A DNA stretch of 64,000 nucleotides from Escherichia coli (GTDB lineage: Bacteria; Pseudomonadota; Gammaproteobacteria; Enterobacterales; Enterobacteriaceae). A program made the position numbers and the translations under genes. The notes under the pieces were generated by a model, which saw only the letters and a list, made by a program, of their open reading frames with translations, was not told where the DNA came from and searched no databases. The stretch lies in the NCBI RefSeq assembly GCF_030013595.1, contig NZ_CP122768.1, one strand, 5' to 3'. Shown piece by piece: positions 1-15,000 of the stretch. How positions within the stretch are numbered: the stretch's first letter is position 1; each line of letters starts with the position of its first letter.

Positions 1-3000
1 CCCTGCCGCTGCCCGACGTCATCAGTGTACGACACAATGGTCGGCGTCGCGGTGGGGTTAATCGTATCGACCACCACCGTTTTCGACACCACCGGGCCAG
101 TATTCCCCGCCAGATCCAGCACCCGCACCTGGTAAACGTAGCTGCCGTCGGTCAGCGTGCGGCTGTCGGTGTAAGTCCACTGCGTACCGTTGGTGGTGAG
201 GGTGATCCAGGTCGCGCCGCCATCGAGGCTAATCTGCGCCACTTCGCCGCTGGCAAGCCCCGCCCCCAGCGAACCGGTTAGGGTGAGCGTGGTGTCACTG
301 GTGATAAAGTCAGTTGCCGAACTCCCCGTGTCGGTGCTGATGCTGGCGATGGTCAACACCTGCGCCGGGTTAACGGTGTCGATCTGCGCCGACTGGCTGC
401 TGGTTGCGCCAACGTTGCCCGCAAGATCGACTACCCGCACCTGCCAGGTGGTGGTGCCGTTGGTGAGCGTACGCCCGTCAACGTAACTCCAGTTAAGGCC
501 GTCTGCGGCGACGGTCACGTTCACCCAGGTTGCGCCGTTGTCGGTACTGATTTGCGCGAATTCGTTAGCGCCGAGCGCCGCCCCCAATACGCCGCGCACG
601 GTAAGCGTGGTGTCGCTGGTAATAAAATCGCTGCTGCTGGCTCCGGTGTCATCGCTGATACCGGTAATGGTGATGCTTTTCGCCGCTTCCGGGCTGGTGG
701 TGTCGACCACCACGTTTTGCGTCGCCGTCTGCCCGACGTTCCCCGCCAGATCCACCACCCGCACCGTGTAGTTCCAGGTACCGTCGGTCAGTGTGCGACC
801 ATCGGCATAGCTCCAGCTGGTGCCGATAACGGTTAAGGTTGTCCAGGTGACACCGCCGTCGAGGCTGATTTGCGCCCGTTCATCGGCGGCAAGCGTCGCG
901 CCGAGCGTGCCGCGCACGGTCAGCGTGGTGTCGCGAGTAACGAAATCGCTGCTGCTTAACCCAGTGTCATCGCTGATGCCCGCAATGGTGATGGTTTTGC
1001 TCGCCAGCGGCGCGGTGGTGTCCACGGTGACTATCTGGCTGGCAGTCGCGCCGATATTTCCGGCGGTGTCGATCACCCGTACCTGATAGTTGTAGTTGCC
1101 ATCGGTCAGCGTCCGCCCGTCAAGATATGTCCAGGTCAAACCGCTTACCGAAAGATTCTGCCAGGTGGTGCCGCCGTCGATGCTGATTTGCGCGAACTCA
1201 CCGGCAGAAAGCGCCGCACCCAGAGAGCCGCTCACCGCAAGCGTCGTGTCGCTGGTGACAAAATCGTTAGTGATCAGGCCCGTATCAGTGGTGATCGCGC
1301 TGATGGCGATGGTTTTTACTGTTGGATCTGGCGCGATGGTGTCGATCACCACATTCTGGCTGTCAGTGGCACCGACGTTGCCCGCCGCGTCAATCACCCG
1401 CACCTGATAGAGATAGTTACCATCGGTCAGCGTGCGGCTGTCGTTATAGCGCCAGGTCGTGCCGGTAACGGTAAGCGTGGTCCAGGTTACGCCGCCGTCG
1501 ATACTGATTTGCGCCGTCTCGTTACTGGCAAGCGCGGCGGTGAGCGAGCCGTTGACCACCACCGGGCTGACGCTGGTGATAAAGTCACTGGCGCTAAGGC
1601 CAGTGTCGGCTTGCAGGGAATCGATATTAATGCCCATCGCCGGAGCGCTGAGATCGACGGTAATGGTGTGATTGCTGCTGCCGGTGTTGCCAATGGCGTT
1701 GCTCACCGAGGCGTTAATCACGTAGGCGTTACCGTCCGCCAGCGCGGTGACATCGGCGCTGCCGAGGGTGTAGCTCCAGCTACCGCCGGTCTGTACCGTG
1801 GTGGTGTAGGTTTTGCCGTTTAAGGTCAGGGTCAGCGTCTGCCCGACTGGGGCGGTGGTGGTGCCGCTGATCACCAGCGACGAGCCGTGCTCCGCTGCAT
1901 TCACCACATCATCGCCCGCAAAGGTGTTGATGGTGACGGTAGGCACATCGCCGTTCAACGTCACGCCACGGCTGGCGCTGCCGGAGTTTCCGGCCTGATC
2001 GCTGACCGTCGCGCTAATGGTGTAGCTGCCGTCGCTTAATCCGGCAAACTGCTGCGCCGGAATAAACACCGACCAGCTTCCGCCGCTGCCGACCGTGGCG
2101 GTCCAGGTTTGTCCGTTAAAGGTGACCGTCACCGTCTGGCCCACTTCAGCGGTGGTGGTGCCGCTGATGGTTTGCCCAGCGAGCTGTTCGGCGTTGTTGA
2201 TAATATCGTCACCCGCCACCGTGGCGATGGTGACCGTTGGCGCAACGGTATCGACGGTCAGGGCGTGCGTGGTTTGACCGGGGTTACCGGCGCGATCGTT
2301 CACGCTGGCGGTAATGGTCTGTGCGCCCTGCCCGAGCGCGGCCAGATCTGCCGCAGGCACGTTCAGCGCCCAGGTGCCATTGGCGGCCACCGTGGCGGTA
2401 TAAGTTTTGCCGCCAAAGGTGACGGTTACCGTCTGCCCTACTTCCGCGCTGGTCGAGCCGTTAAGGGTTAACGGCTGCTGCTGTTCGGCGGCGTTGAGAC
2501 GATCGTCCGTCGAAACGGTGTTAATGCTGATAATCGGCGCGGTGAGATCCACCGCCACACTGCGCGAAGCCGTGGCGCTGTTTCCGGCGCTGTCCTGGGC
2601 GGAAGCGCTGACCGTGTAGCTGGTGCCATCGGCAAGCGCCGCAACGTCTGCCGCCGGCACGTTCACGCTCCAGCTCCCGTTGCTCTGAATGGTAGCGCTG
2701 TAGCCTTTGCCGTTAAGCAACACGGTCACTACTGTACCTGCGGCAAAGTTCGTTCCGGTGCCGCTCAGGGTCAGCGCACTGCCTGCTTCGGCGGCGTTAA
2801 TAAGGTTATCGCCGCTGATGGTGCTGACCGAGAGCGACACTGCCGCCGTGTTCACCTGCACGTTGTGCGTCTGCGTGCTGCTGTTGCCTGCGCTATCGGT
2901 GACAGTGGCGCTGATAGTCACTGTGCCGTCCGCAAGGCCGGAAATCACGCTGGCAGGCACGCCAACGCTCCAGTTGCCGCTGGCATCGGTGCTGGTGACA

Positions 3001-6000
3001 TACTGCTGCCCGGCGATGGTCACCACCAGGCGGTCGCCCGCCACCGCGCCCGAGGCGGTGCCGCTGATAATCTGCGCCTGAGTGTGTTCAACGTTGTTAA
3101 TCACATCGTCGCCCGCCACGGTGTTAAAGCTGATGACGGGCGCGGTGGTATCGACGGTCACACCTTTGCTGGCGCTGCCAGGGTTACCCGCCAAATCGCT
3201 GACCGTGGCGGTCAGGGTGTAGCCGTTATTGGCAAGTGCGGTTAAGTCGCTGGCGGGCAGCGTTAAACTCCAGCTGCCGTCTGCCTGCACCGTGGTCTGG
3301 TAGTTAGTGCCATTAAGCGTGACGGTCAGCGTCTGCCCTGCCTCCGCCGTGCTGGTGCCGGATACCGTCACGCCCGCCGCCGCTTCGCTGGCGTTGATGA
3401 TGTTATCACTGGCAATGGTGTTGATGGTCACCGTTGGCGCGGCGCTATCGACGCTGTATTCATGCGTTGCCGTGGCGCTGTTGCCGTTGACGTTAGTCAC
3501 CCGCACCTGGGCGCTGGCATCGCCGTCACGCAGGGCCGCCATATCCGCCGCCGGAACGGTGGTGCTCCAGCTACCGTTTGCCGCCACCGTGGTGGTGTAG
3601 GTTTTACCGCCAAAAGTAATGGTAACGGCTTGCCCCGCTTCGACGCCGGACGTGCTGCCGGAGAGCGTTAATGCCGCGCCTTTTTCGGCGGCGTTAATCA
3701 CATCATCGCTGGTGATGCTGTTTATGCTGACGGCGACGGTGGTGAGATCAACTGTCAGCGGATGGGTAATGCTGGTTTGCGTTCCGGCACTGTTCGCGCC
3801 GCTAACGGTAATGTTCAGCGTTCCCGCAGGCCAGTTGCTGACATCCGCCGCCGGAACGCCGACGCTCCAGCTGCCGTTTGCCAGCACCGTGGCGGCGTAA
3901 GTTTGGTTATTAATCACCACCGTCAACGCCGTACCTGCGGCAAAACCGGAACTGCTGCCAGTAATCACCTGCGCCTGGGCGTGTTCGATAATATTCACCA
4001 CATCATCGCCCGCGACGGTATCCACCCGCAGGCCGGGTAGACTGGCATCGATGGTGATATCGCGCGTGCCGCTACCGGTGTTGCCAACGGCGTTGGTCAC
4101 CGAGGCATTAACCGTTAACTCACCGTTACCCAGCGCCTGCCAGTCGGCGGCAGGTACGCTCACACTCCAGCTTAAATCAGCCTGCACGGTGGCGGTGTAA
4201 GTTTTACCGCCCAGTTCAACGGTGACGGTGCTGCCCGCCGCCGCACCGGTTACCTGGCCGCTGATGGTTTGTGCGCTGCCCGCCTCGGAAGCGTTGATAA
4301 TATCGTCCGTCGCCACCGGATTAATGGTGACGCCCGGCAGCGCGGTATTGACCTGCACGTTATGGCTGGCGGTACTGCTGTTGCCCTGAGCGTTGGTAAC
4401 GCTCGCCGTGACGCTATATGTGGCTTCGCCCAGCGCACTGACCGCCGAGGCAGGAACGGTGACGCTCCAGTTGCCAGAGGAGTCGGTGGTGGCGCTGTAG
4501 TTTTGTCCGTTCAGCGTAACGGTGATCGCCGTGCCCGCAGGCTGATCGCTGGTGCCGGAAAGCGCCAGATCGGATCCTTTTTCCATCGCGTTGATCACAT
4601 CATCGCCCGCGATGGTGTTGATGCTAATCACTGGCGCGCTGAGGCTGACGGTCACGGTGCGGCTGGCGTCATCGCTGTTACCCGCCCGATCGCTGACGCT
4701 GGCGGTGATGGTCTGTGCGCCGCTACCCAGTGCCGTAACATCCGCCGCCGGAACGCCAACGCTCCAGTTGCCGGAGGCATCCAGGGTGGTGGTGTAGGTT
4801 TTGCCGTTGAGCACAACGCTCACCACATCGCCCGCTTCCCCGCCCGTGCTGGTGCCGGAAATCACCAGCGCCTGCGCATGTTCGGCATCGTTGATAATGT
4901 CATCGCCCGCCACAGTGTTAATGGTGAGAACCGGCGCGGTGGTGTCTACCGCCAGATTATGGCTGGCGCTGCCGGGGTTGCCCGCTTTGTCGTTGGCCGT
5001 GGCGCTGACGGTGTAATTGCTTGCGGTCAGCGCGCCTAAGGCTGAAGGGGGAACGCTGACGCTCCAGCTACCGTCCGCCTGCACAGTGCCGGTGTAGGTT
5101 GCACCGTTAAGGGTGACGGTCACCGTCTGCCCGGTTTCGGCGGTGCTGGTGCCGCTGATGGTGAGCGGGCTTCCCGCCTCCGTGGCGTTAAGAATATCGT
5201 CGCTGGCAATGGTGTTAATGGTGAGCGTCGGTGCGCTGGCGTCAACGCTATACGCATGGGTCGCCGAGGCACTGTTACCGCTCGCGCTGCTGACACTGGC
5301 CTGCACGTTCGCCGCGCCGTCTGGCAGAGTTGCCAGATCTGCCGCTGGAACGTTCACACTCCAGCTACCGTTGGCGGCGACGCTTGCAGTGTAGGTTTTA
5401 CCGCCAAAAGTGACGGTAACGGTTTGCCCGCTTTCAATCCCGCTGGTACTGCCGGAAAGGGTCAGGTCGGTGCCTTTTTCGGCGGCGTTAATTACGTCGT
5501 CGCTGGCAACGGTGTTGATGCTGATTGCCACCGCCGTTAAATCGACGGTGAACGGATGGCTGACGCTGACTGGGTTATCGGCGCTGCTTTGCCCGGCTAC
5601 CTCAACGGTTAACGGCCCCGCAGGCCATGCACTAACGCTTGCCGCCGGAATGCCGACGCTCCAGCTCCCGTCTGCCTGTACCGTGGTGGAATAAGCCACA
5701 CTGTTGATGGTAACTGTCAGCACAGCACCTGCATTCAGGCCGCTACTGCCGCCGGTGATCACCAGCGCCTGCCCGTGTTCAATGCTGTTGACGATATCAT
5801 CGCCCGCTACCGTATCCACCCGCAGCCCCGGCAGGTTGGCATCAATGGTGATATCCCGCGTGCCGCTGCCCGTATTGCCATTAGCGTTGGTGACCGAGGC
5901 GGTAATGGTCAAATCACCATTGCCCAACGCCTGGAGATCGACTGTCGAAACGGTGACGCTCCAGCTTAAATTGCTCAGTACCGTAGCGGTGTAAGTGTTG

Positions 6001-9000
6001 CCGCCCAGCGTGACGGTGACCGTATCGCCAGCGGCGGCGCGGGTCACCACCCCGCTGATGGTTTGATCGGCCCCCGCTTCAGCCGCATTAATAATATCGT
6101 CGCCCGCCACGGTGTTAATGGTGACACCCGGCAGGCCGCTGTCGACCAGTAAATTCGCCTGGCTGCTGGTGGTGTTGCCTGCCGCACTGGTGGCGCTGGC
6201 GCTGACGATATAGTTGGCCTGGCCTAAAGCCGCCAGATCGCTCACCGGCACGGTTAACGTCCAGTTGCCCGCCGCGTCGGTGGTAGCGCTGTAGTTATGA
6301 CCGTTGAGTGTGACGGTAACCTGTGCGCCGGTCGCCAACCCCGTACTGCTACCGCTAATGGTCAACGGCTGGCCTTTTTCATCGGCGTTCAGGACGTTAT
6401 CGCCGCTGATGGCGTTAAAGATAATGGTCGGCAGCCCGGTATTGACCGTCACCTGATGGGTGGCGCTGCCGCTGTTTCCTCCGGCATCAGTGACGCTGGC
6501 GTTAATGGTCACCGTGCCGTTCGCCAGTACCGAGACAACGCTTGCCGGAACACCGACGCTCCAGTTGCCGCTGGCATCCAGCACGGTGGTGAAGGTATTT
6601 GTGCCGATAGTCACCGTCACGGTGCTACCGGTTGTAGCACCCGTGGCGGAACCGCTGATAATCTGCGCCTGGGCGTGTTCCGTCGCGTTGATCACATCAT
6701 CGCCTGCCACCGTGTTGATGGTGACGACCGGAACGGAAGTATCCACCGTCAGGTTGTGATTAACCGAGGCCGGGTTTCCGGCTTTGTCGCTCACCGCCGC
6801 GCTAACGGTGTAGTTGCTGGCGGTCAGGGCGCTTACGTCGGCTGGCGGTACGCTGACGCTCCAGCTACCGTCCGTCTGTACGGTGCCGGTATAGTTTGCG
6901 CCATTGAGCGTGACGGTCACCGTCTGCCCCGCTTCCGCCGTGCTGCTGCCAGTGATGGTCAGCGCAGCTCCGGCTTCGGCGGCGTTAAGAATGTCGTTGC
7001 CCGCAATGGTGTTAATGGTCACCGTTGGCGCGGTAGCATCGACGCTGTAAGCGTGGGTAGTGGTGGCGCTGTTGCCGTTAACATTGCTGACGTTGGCCTG
7101 CGCGCTGGCATCGCCATCACGCAGGGCCGCCATATCTGCCGCCGGAACCGAGGTGCTCCAGGAACCATTCGCCACGACGCTTGCAGTGTAGGTTTTGCCG
7201 CCAAAGGTCACGGTGACCGTTTGTCCGGCCTCCATACCAGAAGTGCTGCCGGAGAGCGTTAACGCCGCGCCTTTTTCGGCAGCGTTAATCACGTCATCGG
7301 CAGTAATGGCGTTGATGCTGACCGCTACCGCAGTGAGATCGACAGTCACCGGATGCGTAACGCTCACCGGGTTTCCGGCGGTGGTGTTGCCGCTCGCCGT
7401 AATTGTGACCGTCCCCGCAGGCCAGGCGCTGACATCTGCCGCCGGAACGCCGACGCTCCATGAGCCATCCGCCAGTACCGCCGCAACATAGGTTTGCCCG
7501 TTAATGGTCAGCGTGACGTTGCTGCCCGCTGCCAGATCAGAGCTGCTGCCGGTAATCACCAGCGCCTGTCCGTGCTCGATGATATTGACCACATCATCGC
7601 CCGCCACGGTATCGACCCGCAGACCGGGCAGATTCGCGTCGATGGTGATTTCACGCGTGCCGTTGCCGGTATTGCCTACGCTGTTCGTTACCGAAGCCGA
7701 AATGGTCAGCTCACCGTTGCCCAACGCCTGTAGCGCGGAGGCCGGAACATTAATACTCCAGCTTAAATTCGCCTGCACCGTGGCAGTGTACGTCGCCCCG
7801 CCGAGCGTGACGGTTACCGTGTCGCCCGCTGCCGCGCCCGTCACCTGCCCGCTGATGCTCTGGCCCGCGCCCGCTTCGGCAGCGTTAATAATATCGTCGC
7901 TCGCGACAACGTTAATGGTGACGCCCGGCAGCGCGGTATTAACCTGCACGTTATGGCTGGCGGAACCGCTGTTGCCATCAGAGTCAGTAGCGGCGGCGGT
8001 CACCGTGTAAGTGGCTTCACCGAGGGCGCTCACCCGTGACGCCGGAACGGTCACGCTCCAGTTACCGGATGCATCGGCAGTGGTGGTGTAATTTTGCCCG
8101 TTGAGCGTAACGGTTATCTGCGTACCCGCAGGCTGGTTACTGCTGCCGGAAATCGCCAGATCCGCGCCTTTCTCCGTGGCATTAATGATGTCGTCGACGG
8201 CAATGGTGTTAATGCCGAGTATCGGCGCGCCGAGCGCCACGGTGACAGTGTGCGAGGCCGTGCCGCTGTTGCCTGCGGAGCCGGTAACCGTGGCGGTAAT
8301 GGTGACATCGCCCTGCGCCAGTGCGGAAATCACGCTGGCAGGCACGCCGATGCTCCAGTTGCCGTTGGCGTCCAGCACGGTGGTGTAGGTGGTCGTGCCA
8401 ATCGTCACGGAAACCGTGTTACCCGTAGTCGCGCCCGTTGCTAAGCCGCTGATAATCTGCGCCTGTCCGTGTTCCGTGGAGTTAATGATGTCATCGCCCG
8501 CTACCGTGTTGATGGTAACGACCGGCGCAACGAGATCCACCGTCAGGTTATGCGTCGCCGAAGCCGGATTTCCGGCTTTGTCGCTGACCGCCGCGCTCAC
8601 CGTATAGGGGCTGACGGTAAGGTTGGCTAAATCGCCAGTTGGTACGCTGACGCTCCAGCTCCCGTCTGCCTGCACGTTGCCGCTGTAATTGACGCCGTTT
8701 AGCGTCACGGTCACCGTCTGCCCGGCTTCCGCCGTGCTGGTACCGCTGATGGTCAGCGCCGATCCCGCTTCGGCGGCGTTAAGAATATCGTCGCTGGCGA
8801 TGGTGTTGATGGTAACGGATGGCGCGGTGGCATCGACGCTGTAAGCATGCGTTGCCTGGGCGTTGTTACCCGCGACGCTACTGACACTGGCCTGGACGTT
8901 TGCTGTGCCGTCCGGCAAGGTTGCGAGATCGACGGCTGGGATCGTTAGCCCCCAGGTATTATCCGCGGCAACCGTGGTGGTGTAACTTTTACCACCGAAG

Positions 9001-12000
9001 ATAACGGTGATGGTCTGCCCCGCTTCCACGCCGGAGGTGGTGCCGGAGAGCTGCAAATCGCTGCCTTTTTCGGCGGCGTTAATCACATCGTCAGTGGAAA
9101 GGGTGTTAATGGTAATCGCCACGGCCGCGAGATCGACCGTGACCGGATGGCTAATGCTGGTTGTGGTTCCGGCGGTATTCGTGCCAGAGACGGCAATATT
9201 GACCGTCCCCGCAGGCCAGTTTGTGACATCTGCCGCCGGAACGCCGACGCTCCAGCTGCCATCGGCGAGTACCGTTGCGCCGTAGGTGACGCTATTGATA
9301 ACCACCGTCAACGCCGCCCCCGCCGCCAGTCCGGTACTGCTACCGGTGACCACCAGAGCCTGACCATGCTCGATAATATTGACCACATCATCGCCTGCTA
9401 CGGTATCGACGCGCAGACCAGGCAGGTTGGCGTCTATCACGATGTCGTGCGTTGCGGTGCCGGTATTCCCCACGCCATTAGTCACCGAGGCGCTGATGGT
9501 CAGTTCACCGTTGCCCAGCGCCTGCAAAACGTTCGCAGGCACGCTGACGCTCCAGCTTAAATCTGGCTGCACGGTGGCGGTGTATTGATTGCCACCAATG
9601 GTGACAATTACCGTATTCCCCGCAGCCGCCGTTCCCGTGACCTGCCCGCTGATGGTCTGCGCCACAGCGATTTCAGCGGCATTGATAATGTCATCGCCCG
9701 CCACCGTATTAATGGTCACCCCAGGCAGGAGCGATTCGACATTCACCGTATGGGTGGTGCTGCCGCTGTTGCCCGCGCTGTCGGTGGCGCTGGCGCTAAT
9801 CGAATAGACCGCCTCGCCCAGCGCGCCGACCGCCGAAGCGGGCACGGTAACGCTCCAGTTGCCGGAACTGTCGGTGGTGGCGCTGTACGCCAGGCCGTTC
9901 AACATCACGGTGACCGTGGTGCCAGTCGCCAGACCGCTGGAGCCGCCGCTGATGGTCAGATCCTGGGTTTTCTCCGTACTGTTAATAATGTCATCGTCGG
10001 AGACGGTATTGATGGTCAGCGTCGGGCCGCTGAGATCAACGGTCACATTATGGGTAGTGCTGTCGCTGTTGCCCGCGCGATCGCTCAGGCTGGCGGTGAT
10101 CGTCTGGCTACCGGTCGCCAGCGCCGTGACATCCGCCGCCGGAATGCCCACAGTCCAGTTACCGGAGGCGTCCAGCGTGGTGGTGTAGTTTTTACCGTTC
10201 AGCGTGACGATTACCACATCGCCCGCCGCCGCGCCCGTGCTGGTGCCGCTGACCACCAGCGCCTGACCATGTTCGATGGCGTTGATAATGTCATCGCCCG
10301 CGACGGTATTAATGGTGAGATCCGGCGCGGTGACATCCACCGCCAGCGCGTGGTCGGCGCTTGCCGAGTTACCCGCTTTGTCGCTCACCGTGGCGGTCAC
10401 GGTGTAACTGCTGGCGGTTAATCCGCTTAAATCCGTTGCCGGAACGTTCACGCTCCAGGTGCCATCCGCGAGAACAGTGGTCTGGTACGTGTTGTTATTG
10501 AGCGTGACGGTCAGCGTCTGTCCGGCCTGTGCCGTGGTGGTACCGCTGATGGTTATCCCCGCGCCCGCTTCGCTCACGTTAAGGATATCGTCGCTGGCGA
10601 TAGTGTTGATGGTCACAAGCGGCGCGGTGGCATCAACGCTGTACGCGCGATCGGCCTGGGCGTTGTTGCCGTTAATATTGCTCACGCTCGCCTGCACGTT
10701 GCCCGCGCCGTCCGGTAGCGCAGCGAGATCGGCAGGCGGCACATTCACCGTCCAGCTACCGTTGGCTTCAACGGTGGTGGTGTAATTTTTGCCACCAAAG
10801 GTGACCGTCACCGTCTGCCCGGCTTCGACACCGCTGGTGCTGCCGCTCACCACCAGCGTTTCGCCTTTCTCCACGGCGTTGATCACATCATCGACGGAAA
10901 GGGTGTTAATGGTGATGGCAACCGCCGCCAGATCGACGGTAACCGGATGGGTAATAGTGGAGGTTGTCCCGGCGCTGTTGGTGCCGCTTACGGTTATATC
11001 GACCGTACCCGCTGGCCAGTTGCTGACGTCTGCCGCCGGAACGCCGAGGTTCCATGTGCCGTCGGCTAACACCGTCGCGGCGTAAGTAACGTTGTTAATC
11101 TCGACCGTTAACGCCGTTCCCGCCGTTAATCCGCTGCTGCTCCCGGTGCTCACCAGCGCCTGATTGTGCTCAATGCTGTTAATAACATCATCGCCCGCCA
11201 CGGTATCGACCCGCAGCCCAGGCAGATTGGCGTCGATCGTGATATCGCGCGAGCCGTTGCCGGTATTGCCCACGCCGTTGGTGACCGAGGCATTAACCGT
11301 CAGGTCGCCGTTGCCCAGCGCCTGAATATCCGCCGCCGGCACGCTAACGCTCCAGCTTAAATTGGCCTGCACTGTGGCGGTGTAGGTGTTGCCGCCCAGC
11401 GTGATGGTAACGGTATCTCCCGCCGCGGCCCCCGTCACCTGCCCGCTGATGGTCTGGGCATTTCCCGACTCGGCATCGTTAATAATATCGTCGGTCGCCA
11501 CCGCGTTAATGGTGACGGCAGGCAGCGCGCTGTTGACCAGCACATTATGGCTGGCGGAATTGCTGTTGCCTGCGCTATCGGTGACGTTCGCCGTCACCGT
11601 GTAACTGGCTTCGCCCAGCGCACCGACAGCGGAGGCTGGCACCGTGGCACTCCAGTTGCCGGAAGCATCTGTGGTGGCGGTGTAATTTTGCCCGTTCAGC
11701 GTCACCGTAATGGTGGTGCCTGCGGGTTGATTACTGGTACCGGTAATTTGCAGATCCGCGCCTTTTTCCGTGGCGTTAATCACGTCATCGCTGGCGATAG
11801 TGTTGATGCCAATGGTTGGCGCGGTCAGATTCACGGTGACCGTGCGGCTGGCATCATCGCTGTTGCCTGCCGCGTCGGTAATGGTAGCTGTGATGGTTTG
11901 CGGGCCGCTGCCCAGCGCAGTGACATCTGACAGCGGAACGCCGACGCTCCAGTTGCCGGAAGCATCCAGCGTGGTGGTGTAGGTTTTACTGTTTAGCGTG

Positions 12001-15000
12001 ACGGTGATGACATCACCCGCTTCGCCGCCAGTGCTGGAACCGGAGATCACCAGCGCCTGTCCGTGTTCGGCGGCGTTAATAATGTCATCGCCGGAGACGG
12101 TGTTGATGGTCAGCACCGGCACGGTGAGATCCACCGCCAGCCCGTGAGTGGCGGTCGCAGGGTTACCCGCTTTATCGCTTACCGAGGCGCTAACGGTGTA
12201 CTGGCCGGCGGTCAGATTGCTAAGATCTGCCGTCGGCACACTGACGCTCCAGCTGCCGTCCGCCTGGACGGTGCCGCTGTAAGTCACGCCATTAAGCGTG
12301 ACGGTTACCGTCTGCCCCGCTTCGGCGGTACTGCTGCCGCTGATGGTTAGCGGATTGCCCGCCTCGGCGGCGTTCAGAATATCGTCGGTGGCGATGGTGT
12401 TAATGGCAAGCGTCGGGGCCGTGGCATCGACGCTGTAGGCGTGGGTTGCCGAAGCCGTATTGCCGTTAACGTTACTGACGCTGGCCTGTACCGTGGCGTC
12501 GCCGTCGCGTAATGCGGCGAGATCGGCAGCAGGTACACTGGTTGTCCAGCTGCCATCGCCCGCTACGGTGGCGGTGTAGGTTTTCCCGCCAAAGGTAACT
12601 GAGACCGTTTGCCCCGGCTCCACGCCGGAGGTGCTGCCTGAAAGGGTTAAATCGGCCCCTTTTTCGGCGGCGTTAATCACATCATCGCCGGAAACGGTGT
12701 TAATGGAAATCGCCACCGCCGCCAGATCGACGGTGACTGGATGGGTGATAGTGACCGGGTTTCCTGCGCTAGTGGCACCTGAAACCGTGATATTCACCGT
12801 CCCCGCAGGCCAGTTACTGACATCTGCCGCCGGAACGCCAACGCTCCATGTACCATCGGCTAATACCGTCGCGCCGTAGGTGACGTTATTGATCACCACC
12901 GTCAGCGCCGCGCCCGCCGCCAGCCCGCTGCTGCTACCGGTTATCACCAGTGCCTGACCGTGCTCGATGCTGTTGACCACATCATCGCCCGCCACGGTAT
13001 CGACGCGCAGACCTGGCAAATTGGCGTCGATAGTAATATCTCGCGAACCGCTGCCGGTATTACCAACGCCGTTGGTCACCGAGGCATTAACTGTCAGGTC
13101 GCCATTGCCGATGGCCTGAATATCCGCCGCCGGAACGTCCACGCTCCAGCTTAAATTCCCCTGCACGGTAGCGGTGTAAGTTTTCCCGCCAAGCGTTACG
13201 GTAACCGTATCGCCCGCCGCCGCACCCGTCACCTGGCCGCTGATGGTCTGCGCCACGCCCGATTCCGCAGCGTTGATAATATCGTCGCTCGCCACCGGAT
13301 TAATGGTGACGCCAGGCAGCGCGGTATTGACCTGCACGTTATGGCTGGCGGAATTGCTGTTGCCCGCGCTGTCGGTGACGTTCGCCGTCACCGTGTAGCT
13401 GGCTTCGCCCAGCGCACCGACAGCGGAAGCAGGCACCGTGGTGCTCCAGTTGCCGGAAGCATCTGTGGTGGCAGTGTAATTTTGCCCGTTCAGCGTCAGC
13501 GTAATTGTGGTGCCAGCTGGCTGATTACTGGTGCCGGAAATTTGCAGATCCGCGCCTTTTTCGGTGGCGTTAATCACGTCATCGGTGGCGATGGTGTTAA
13601 TGCCAATGGTCGGCGCGGTCAGATTCACTGTAACCGTGCGGCTGGCATCATCGCTGTTGCCTGCCGCGTCGGTAATGCTGGCGGTGACAGTTTGCGGGCC
13701 GCTGCCCAGCGCCGTGACATCCGCCGCCGGAACGCCGACGCTCCAGTTGCCGGAGGCATCCAGCGTCGTGGTGTAGGTTTTACTGTTTAGCGTGACGGTG
13801 ACGACATCCCCCGCTTCTCCGCCAGTGCTGGAACCGGAAATCACCAGCGCCTGCCCGTGTTCGGCGGCGTTAATAATATCGTCGCCCGCAATGGTGTTGA
13901 TGGTAAGTACCGGAACGGTGAGATCCACCGCCAGATTATGCGTGGTGCTCGCCGGGTTGCCCGCTTTGTCATTGACCGTGGCGGTCAGGGTGTGGCTGCC
14001 ATCGGTCAATGCCTCAAGATCTGCCGCCGGAATATTGATGCTCCAGCCGCCGTCCGCCTGCACCGTTGCCTGATAGGTCTGCACGGTCGGGCTATTGAGC
14101 GTTACCGTAACAATCTGCCCCGCTTCAGCGGTGGTGCTGCCGCTCACCGTCACACCCGCATCGGCTTCGCTGGCGTTGACGATATTGTCGCTGGCGACGG
14201 TATTGATAATGATGGTTGGCGCGCTGCTATCCACACTGTAGCTGTGCACCGCCGAGGCGCTATTGCCGTTAATATTGCTGACGCTGGCCTGCGCGGAGGC
14301 GCTGCCCTCTGGTAATGCTGCCAGATCGGCGGCGGGAACGGTGGCAGTCCAGCTACCATCGCTCGCCACGCTGGCGGTGTAATTTTTCCCACCAAAGGTG
14401 ACGGTGACGGTTTGACCGGGTTCTACGTTAGTGGTGGTGCCGGAAAGGGTTAAATCAGCGCCTTTTTCTGCGGCGTTAATCACATCGTCCGTGGCGATGG
14501 TGTTGATGGTAATCGCCGCCGGCGTGAGATCGACCATAACCGGATGCGTAATGCTCACCGGATTTTCGGCGCTACTTTCCCCGGATACGGCAATATTAAC
14601 CGTCCCCGCAGGCCAGACGCTAACCTGCGCCGCCGTGACGCCCACGCTCCAGCTACCATCGGCCTGCACCGCAGTGATGTATTCCACATTATTAATTGTG
14701 ACGGTAAGCGGCGTGCCTTCAGCCAGCCCCGAGCTGCTGCCGGTGACCACCAGCGCCTGCCCGTGCTCAATGATATTGACCACATCATCGCCCGCCACCG
14801 TATCGACCCGCAGACCGGGCAGATTGGCGTCGATGGTGATATCCCGCGTGCCGCTGCCGGTGTTGCCGTTTTGATTGGTGACCGAGGCGCTCACCGTTAA
14901 ATCGCCATTACCCAGCGCCTGAATATCTGCCGCCGGAACGCTCACGCTCCAGGTGAGATTGCTGCCCACCGTCGCCGTATAAGTATTACCGCCCAACGTA

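Follow-up and report, generated by a model that had tools for sequence, protein, structure and literature searches.

The 64,000-nucleotide stretch of Escherichia coli DNA analysed here (contig NZ_CP122768.1 of assembly GCF_030013595.1; 'the window', numbered from its first letter) begins within siiEA, a giant adhesin gene whose extender stalk repeats with a period of about 1.8 kb. Very probably this period is an old higher-order repeat, amplified block by block and now nearly fixed, in a part of the protein that homology suggests is a spacer. The minus strand between 18050 and 3 is a single stop-free frame with an ATG at 18020 that runs off the window start, and the gene therefore lies on the strand opposite to that implied by the initial annotation of this DNA; in relatives, full-length siiEA is ~20.8 kb and encodes 6925 aa. 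A record 99.8% identical to the window (L001) annotates the open reading frame (ORF) as 'siiEA: BapA-related adhesin SiiEA'. Residues 1–227 match the NCBIfam SiiEA family NF047714 (494.6 bits against a cut-off of 425), a retention-type prefix is recognized at the N terminus by NF033677, biofilm_BapA_N (69.9 bits against a cut-off of 35), and Pfam PF22783 is recorded on homologues. The window ends before the C terminus, where the full-length relative L006 carries the type I secretion C-terminal domain TIGR03661 (35.2 bits against a cut-off of 17.6). The location is likewise that of SiiEA. Flanking genes in the window match E. coli glsA, ybaT and copA together with a TolC-family outer-membrane gene, and in L001 the type I secretion genes for the ATP-binding cassette (ABC) and HlyD components and cueR come after siiEA, beyond the window start, so that the adhesin gene sits between ybaT/glsA/copA and cueR beside dedicated type I secretion genes. 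Judged by these signatures, the gene is the type I-secreted giant adhesin SiiEA of O-island 28 (OI-28), an island with a reported role in adherence of enterohaemorrhagic E. coli (EHEC) O157:H7 and with adherence phenotypes described for its mutants (PMC12758282). The principal features are as follows.

3..18020, minus strand: siiEA giant adhesin gene, partial (stop-free frame from 18050 to 3; annotation of the 99.8%-identical record; NF047714)
17340..18020, minus strand: N-terminal SiiEA signature including the BapA prefix-like domain (NF047714, NF033677)
18129..19484, minus strand: TolC-family outer-membrane component of the dedicated type I secretion system (annotation of a relative; translation)

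DNA autocorrelation over window positions 1–18050 gave a peak at each multiple of ~300 bp, the highest being at lag 1794 (0.474; lag 300 gives 0.42, and the background is 0.264 ± 0.033). Additional peaks fall at 3591/3594, 5388/5391, 7185 (0.456) and 8979. The ~1.8-kb period that the initial annotation had proposed on top of a ~300-bp repeat is thus the strongest signal in the region, and the array does not show ~300-bp periodicity alone. Tandem Repeats Finder reported no repeat in the window, because the longest period it considers is 500 and the copies are too diverged. When the ORF was tiled with an iteratively built hidden Markov model (HMM), at least 58 contiguous immunoglobulin (Ig)-like domains of ~99 aa each were found, forming a long extender array (D01–D58). 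In a matrix of pairwise identities, 42 of these (D08–D49, window 2775–15350) fall into six position classes in the order a-b-c-d-e-f, with a mean identity of 70.5% (range 45–94%) between domains of the same class and 44.4% between domains of different classes. In this position-wise comparison of domains across units, the nearest neighbour of every one of the 42 domains is found in the same position class of another block, which is the defining relationship of a higher-order repeat. Mean identity at a lag of six domains was 0.716, and in 10,000 permutations of domain order it averaged 0.482 ± 0.018 and never exceeded 0.570. A three-domain sub-period was considered and rejected: identity at lag three (0.454–0.463, compared with 0.43–0.45) is barely raised, and the class-by-class matrix contains no pairing of a with d, b with e or c with f. 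The register defined in this way, read from the N-terminal side, is as follows.

15351..17423, minus strand: D01–D07, domains preceding the regular array (HMM tiling, identity matrix)
13548..15350, minus strand: unit U1 (D08–D13, 601 aa)
11754..13547, minus strand: unit U2 (D14–D19, 598 aa; Ca_tandemer, Big_13 and 4P99 matches)
9960..11753, minus strand: unit U3 (D20–D25, 598 aa)
8160..9959, minus strand: unit U4 (D26–D31, 600 aa)
6366..8159, minus strand: unit U5 (D32–D37, 598 aa)
4569..6365, minus strand: unit U6 (D38–D43, 599 aa)
2775..4568, minus strand: unit U7 (D44–D49, 598 aa)
1563..2774, minus strand: D50–D53, of the stalk domain type but outside the six-class register
3..1562, minus strand: D54–D58, a second repeat class of ~106 aa, in an array that goes on beyond the window
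12951..13847, minus strand: younger exchange tract, copy 1 (D13–D15, classes f-a-b)
11157..12053, minus strand: copy 2 of this tract (D19–D21, again classes f-a-b), offset downstream by exactly one unit

The array therefore consists of seven contiguous head-to-tail units of nearly constant length (598–601 aa, 1794–1803 bp), each of six domains. Super-units of ~600 aa and about six Ig-like domains had been predicted and are borne out; the tandem arrangement also stands, with seven in-register units in place of the about six periods first counted, and the repetitive region, placed initially at 3600–14800, extends from 2775 to 15350, reaching about 0.8 kb below and 0.55 kb above the limits first given. 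The edges of the register are less sharp. D06 is a weak in-register member of class e (0.56 identical) and D07 one of class f (0.60), the block D02–D07 being 45–48% identical to U1–U7, and D49, the last domain of U7, is the most diverged member of class f. The D54–D58 domains are 50–66% identical among themselves and ~20–30% identical to the stalk domains, and O157:H7 and strain LR-28 each lack one copy of this class. As to what the repeating domain is, U2 contains six stretches matching NF033510, Ca_tandemer ('Ca2+-stabilized repeat'; 558 bits), is also matched by Pfam Big_13, and finds its best solved relative in the RII tetra-tandemer of MpAFP (PDB 4P99, E = 4e-58), a match that fixes the predicted fold of the stalk domains. 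The motifs 'DDxxNxxE' and 'GN' are kept in all six classes.

Short-read assemblies of giant repetitive adhesin genes are often wrong (10.1101/2025.09.30.679566), some records of this gene carry frameshifts, and the periodicity might on these grounds be taken for an artefact of assembly. However, between a quarter and a third of the bases differ from unit to unit, which makes the units unambiguous to assemble, and the seven-unit structure is colinear over 24.6 kb in hundreds of complete genomes and recurs in other genera. An assembly artefact is excluded by this evidence, and we give it practically no credence.

Comparison of the units with one another bears on their age. Pairs among U1–U7 share 64–79% of their protein and 67–78% of their DNA sequence, with synonymous divergence (dS) of 0.76–1.22 and dN/dS of 0.14–0.27 (Nei–Gojobori), from which it follows that the units are old and under purifying selection. 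The longest exact tract shared by two units is only 20–45 bp. Among exact repeats of at least 30 nt in the array, seven of eight lie at multiples of the 1.8-kb period and the eighth joins positions 33 domains apart, so that almost all of the remaining substrate for homologous recombination is in register. A single younger event can be seen: the two copies of the f-a-b tract (897 bp) are 89.1% identical in nucleotides and 92% in amino acids, compared with 67–78% DNA identity for whole units, which indicates a later duplication or conversion. Between alleles, the synonymous difference of siiEA in the window from that in L006 amounts to 0.15 per site, with a pN/pS of 0.11. By these measures the blocks are evidently an ancient architecture and not recent copies.

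We surveyed length variation among E. coli strains, the siiEA locus being carried by 959 of 5,426 complete genomes. A search for homologues of the N terminus returned only fragments of at most 521 aa, and lengths were accordingly taken from locus spans in complete E. coli genomes, with 60 of the 959 drawn at even spacing, together with two junction-specific counts. About half of the 60 share the modal span of 24.59 kb, counted from the ABC gene through to the TolC-family gene, and are 94–96% identical to the query. The gene is also unusually polymorphic in sequence: identity to the query allele (from L001) reaches 99% or more in two of the 959 locus-bearing genomes and is 80–96% in most. Alleles of other lengths were found as follows.

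WP_001550748.1: 18,975 bp, intact, lacking R24–R29, exactly one unit (L002 allele); six units remain
GF131: 13,587 bp, intact, lacking R11–R34, exactly four units (L003 allele); three units remain
O157:H7: two domains missing, one at D25/D26 and the other of the C-terminal class; one nonsense codon
O157:H7 Z1835: four more domains deleted, at an exact tract of 21 bp between one class-f and one class-d domain
LR-28: lacking one C-terminal-class domain
L004 and L011 (two strains): a gain of three domains between D04 and D05, together with frameshifts
ETEC4071, GDSC2227PM and E. coli protein P0030: irregular deletions

Apparent large truncations in a megablast survey with the 24.6-kb locus (O157:H7; H58–H60) were discarded, being unjoined pieces of matches; the annotated genes there are 20,160 and 18,975 bp. 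Deletion junctions were mapped by five-sequence alignments and strings of informative sites, fixed-offset scanning having been defeated by small indels. Both the one-unit and the four-unit deletion proved to be one clean switch of informative sites from left unit to right unit, with crossover points in register and inside tracts of 17 and 23 bp in which the recombining copies do not differ. Of 955 genomes covered by a junction-specific search, 86 carry the one-unit junction at 99% identity or more, and a corresponding search for the four-unit junction found it in 1 of 958; the one-unit deletion is a single shared allele, represented by the one protein accession WP_001550748.1.

Two independent in-register deletions, of one and four units, and a younger f-a-b tract at 89% identity would be expected of a contingency-type repeat that is recently and actively expanding, with frequent 600-aa steps produced by unequal crossing-over. 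The units are nevertheless 22–33% diverged in DNA with dS of ~1, their longest shared exact tracts are 20–45 bp, the locus has the same length in many unrelated strains at 94–96% identity, one shared allele accounts for the one-unit deletion, and the alleles surveyed show no expansion. With copies this diverged, a constant locus length in about half of the sample and deletion alleles in 86 and 1 of ~955 genomes, the locus does not behave as a hypervariable repeat; active expansion is largely refuted, and we consider it very improbable.

The block has a wider distribution than E. coli. Thousands of giant homologues came up when U2 was searched against the full library, and lag profiles of domain identity were computed for 99 with at least 14 domains. 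The closest of these have a period of six. In P0026 of Enterobacter cloacae, which has six units, identity at lag six is 59% compared with ~40% at other lags, and the same period is found in P0027, P0037 (Pantoea sp.), P0041 and P0055/P0176 (Jejubacter) and weakly in P0035 (Dryocola). When the foreign domains are labelled by their best E. coli class, 'abcdef' is read repeatedly with its order unchanged; since this order is common to several genera, the six-class block predates them. Class-diagnostic motifs are also common to several genera, and class b is the most conserved (0.82 within E. coli; 0.66–0.69 between species, compared with 0.43–0.61 for the other classes). P0038 of Citrobacter amalonaticus reads abcdef-def-def-def, the block 'def' having been amplified instead, and more distant homologues have periods of 1, 2, 3, 4 or 5, or none. 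Among other giant homologues, P0028 and P0126 have a period of four at 94–97% identity, P0109 and P0141 a period of two and P0052 a period of five, and P0074 likewise has a block size other than six; block-wise repetition is thus common in this adhesin superfamily.

Conservation of this kind could mean that the six-domain block is itself functional, a super-repeat comparable with those of titin, in which the classes have specific roles (as ligand-binding or rigid-joint modules, for example) and selection maintains the a–f order. The order and the class-diagnostic motifs are indeed kept across genera, class b is markedly more conserved than its neighbours, and all classes are under purifying selection. 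Yet natural intact alleles have six or three units, the Citrobacter homologue amplifies 'def' only, and distant relatives have periods of one to five or none, which implies that no particular period is required for an adhesin of this type; shared ancestry alone, moreover, predicts a conserved order. We know of no partner with a matching periodicity for the SiiEA stalk, and count this against a functional super-repeat, which we regard as unlikely. Its fuller version, in which six non-interchangeable classes are conserved across the Enterobacterales, class b serves as a binding or joint module and the periodicity serves display or lateral interactions, seems to us slightly less likely again, although, if true, it would provide a bacterial analogue of the titin super-repeats.

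Our preferred explanation remains that the 1.8-kb period is an old, block-amplified higher-order repeat in an extender stalk. The array would have grown by unequal homologous recombination duplicating multi-domain blocks; once the six-domain block had formed, the longest tracts of identity would have lain one block apart, so that later exchanges kept the register, and subsequent divergence would nearly have frozen the copy number. A block-wise origin of this kind is reasonable, given the clean in-register crossovers that removed one and four units, the seven of eight long repeats at multiples of the period and the 'def' amplification in Citrobacter. To this extent the unequal crossing-over of multi-domain blocks put forward in the initial annotation is upheld, with the qualification that the units are not recent copies. 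That the copy number is close to fixed is suggested by units only 67–78% identical, dS of ~1 and shared tracts of only 20–45 bp. The period itself is probably historical and need not have a function, as the intact six- and three-unit alleles, the 'def' array of Citrobacter and the varied periods of relatives suggest. By homology with region II of MpIBP and with SiiE, the stalk domains probably form a rigid, Ca2+-stiffened spacer that holds the distal adhesin part off the cell surface. Dissimilar neighbouring domains in tandem Ig arrays are known to be less prone to inter-domain misfolding, and the five dissimilar neighbours (~44% identity) that separate equivalent domains in SiiEA probably limit both out-of-register recombination and the misfolding of adjacent domains.

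Several observations weigh against this explanation or narrow it. Unit deletions were observed directly, but no unit duplication or expansion was, and none of the E. coli alleles surveyed has more than seven units. Out-of-register changes of −1, −4 and +3 domains also occur, so that the predicted strain-to-strain length variation in steps of 600 aa holds for the alleles lacking exactly one and four units but fails for these changes and for the irregular deletions. The population figures come from the evenly spaced 60 of 959 genomes and the two junction counts, and the Ca2+-dependent stalk role is inferred from homology. Domains of the same class are on average 0.71 identical within E. coli and 0.63 within Enterobacter cloacae, the figure across the two species being 0.61, and whole units could not clearly be paired by positional orthology between these species. 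With positional orthology this weak, one ancient amplification followed by partial homogenization cannot be separated from several later amplifications; individual unit copies have, on this comparison, evidently been turned over or partly homogenized since the genera split.

The gene, its secretion system and the existence of multi-domain patterns in the stalks of repeats-in-toxin (RTX) adhesins are already known. The same gene and locus, with TolC-family, ABC and HlyD type I secretion genes, were studied by the authors of PMC12758282, who describe OI-28 as 'RtxA28/RtxB28' (z0609 and z0615, rtxA28/rtxB28), two RTX proteins with multiple Ig-like domains, and whose account does not mention a multi-domain periodicity. 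Multi-domain extender patterns in RTX adhesins have been described in general terms (10.1101/2025.09.30.679566), as have mosaic Bap modules of Acinetobacter (PMC4647330); compared with these, SiiEA has a period of six, copies that are 64–79% identical in protein and not near-identical, and a class order kept across genera. SiiE of Salmonella pathogenicity island 4 is also a giant type I-secreted non-fimbrial adhesin adjoining its own secretion system, with 53 bacterial Ig-like (BIg) domains carrying Ca2+ sites (PMC6272769, PMC5466336), but it differs from SiiEA in its N terminus and BIg family, SiiEA being 'BapA-related' with a BapA prefix domain. Region II of MpIBP (MpAFP) from Marinomonas primoryensis likewise consists of Ca2+-dependent Ig-like extenders in a type I-secreted giant adhesin. 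It has ~120 near-identical repeats of 104 aa and hence a period of one domain, unlike the SiiEA stalk, in which six diverged classes are repeated as a block. In formal pattern the stalk resembles the higher-order repeats of alpha-satellite DNA and the super-repeats of titin, in all of which equivalent monomers in different units are more similar than monomers within a unit. Alpha-satellite repeats are non-coding and homogenized to >95% identity, and the multi-domain super-repeats of titin, built of Ig and fibronectin type III (Fn3) domains, have a matching periodic partner in the thick filament. Searches of open-access text turned up no account of the six-domain block in SiiEA, nor of its conservation in several genera.

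A very large colonization factor of E. coli now has an exact domain map, and the natural intact alleles with seven, six and three blocks, the six-block form being WP_001550748.1 and the three-block form WP_104274855.1, would permit direct comparison of the effect of stalk length on adhesion. The persistence of multi-domain stalk blocks across genera implies that not every repetitive adhesin gene is fast-evolving and length-variable. The divergence of the units is also sufficient for assembly and typing to resolve them without ambiguity.

Some further observations concern individual alleles and neighbouring genes. In O157:H7 strain 319, siiEA (L012:2924-23083) is a frame of 6,719 codons with one GAG→TAG change at codon 1462, in domain D13; since the O157:H7 frame is interrupted by this single stop codon only, z0609/rtxA28 and z0615/rtxB28 look like two halves of one gene. 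In O157:H7 strain 380-94 (L015:1-5081), Mu-like phage genes (Mu transposase, Kil and an AAA ATPase) take the place of the 3' end of siiEA and of the ABC and HlyD genes. In GDSC2227PM (L010:2634-3095) nearly all of the adhesin gene has been lost in a deletion that starts at the prefix domain and ends inside the ABC transporter gene, leaving a 3.7-kb remnant of the 24.6-kb locus. The closest complete genome to the window, HCP5S3_I2, has an extra 23 bp at window position 15231 (L001:37529-37551) and its gene is annotated as frameshifted; the window lacks this insertion and its frame stays open. Of the near-twin genomes HCP5S3_I2 and LCP30S3_I5, the former was the one examined for this insertion. 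There is a further indel, of 9 bp, at window position 17612. The G+C content of the adhesin gene (3-18020) is 60.9%, compared with 52.2% in the rest of the window (18100-64000), which could reflect either a foreign origin of the island or a protein composition rich in Gly, Ala, Thr and Val. On translation, the TolC-family gene of the window contains a nonsense codon at 18315–18317, codon 390 of 451, so that the outer-membrane channel dedicated to the adhesin may be cut short in this strain; L001 differs at window position 18316, and its TolC-family gene is annotated as full-length (451 aa). Finally, a YadA-family autotransporter adhesin gene lies just past cueR (L001:14112-15128), so that two different adhesin systems flank cueR in island-bearing strains.

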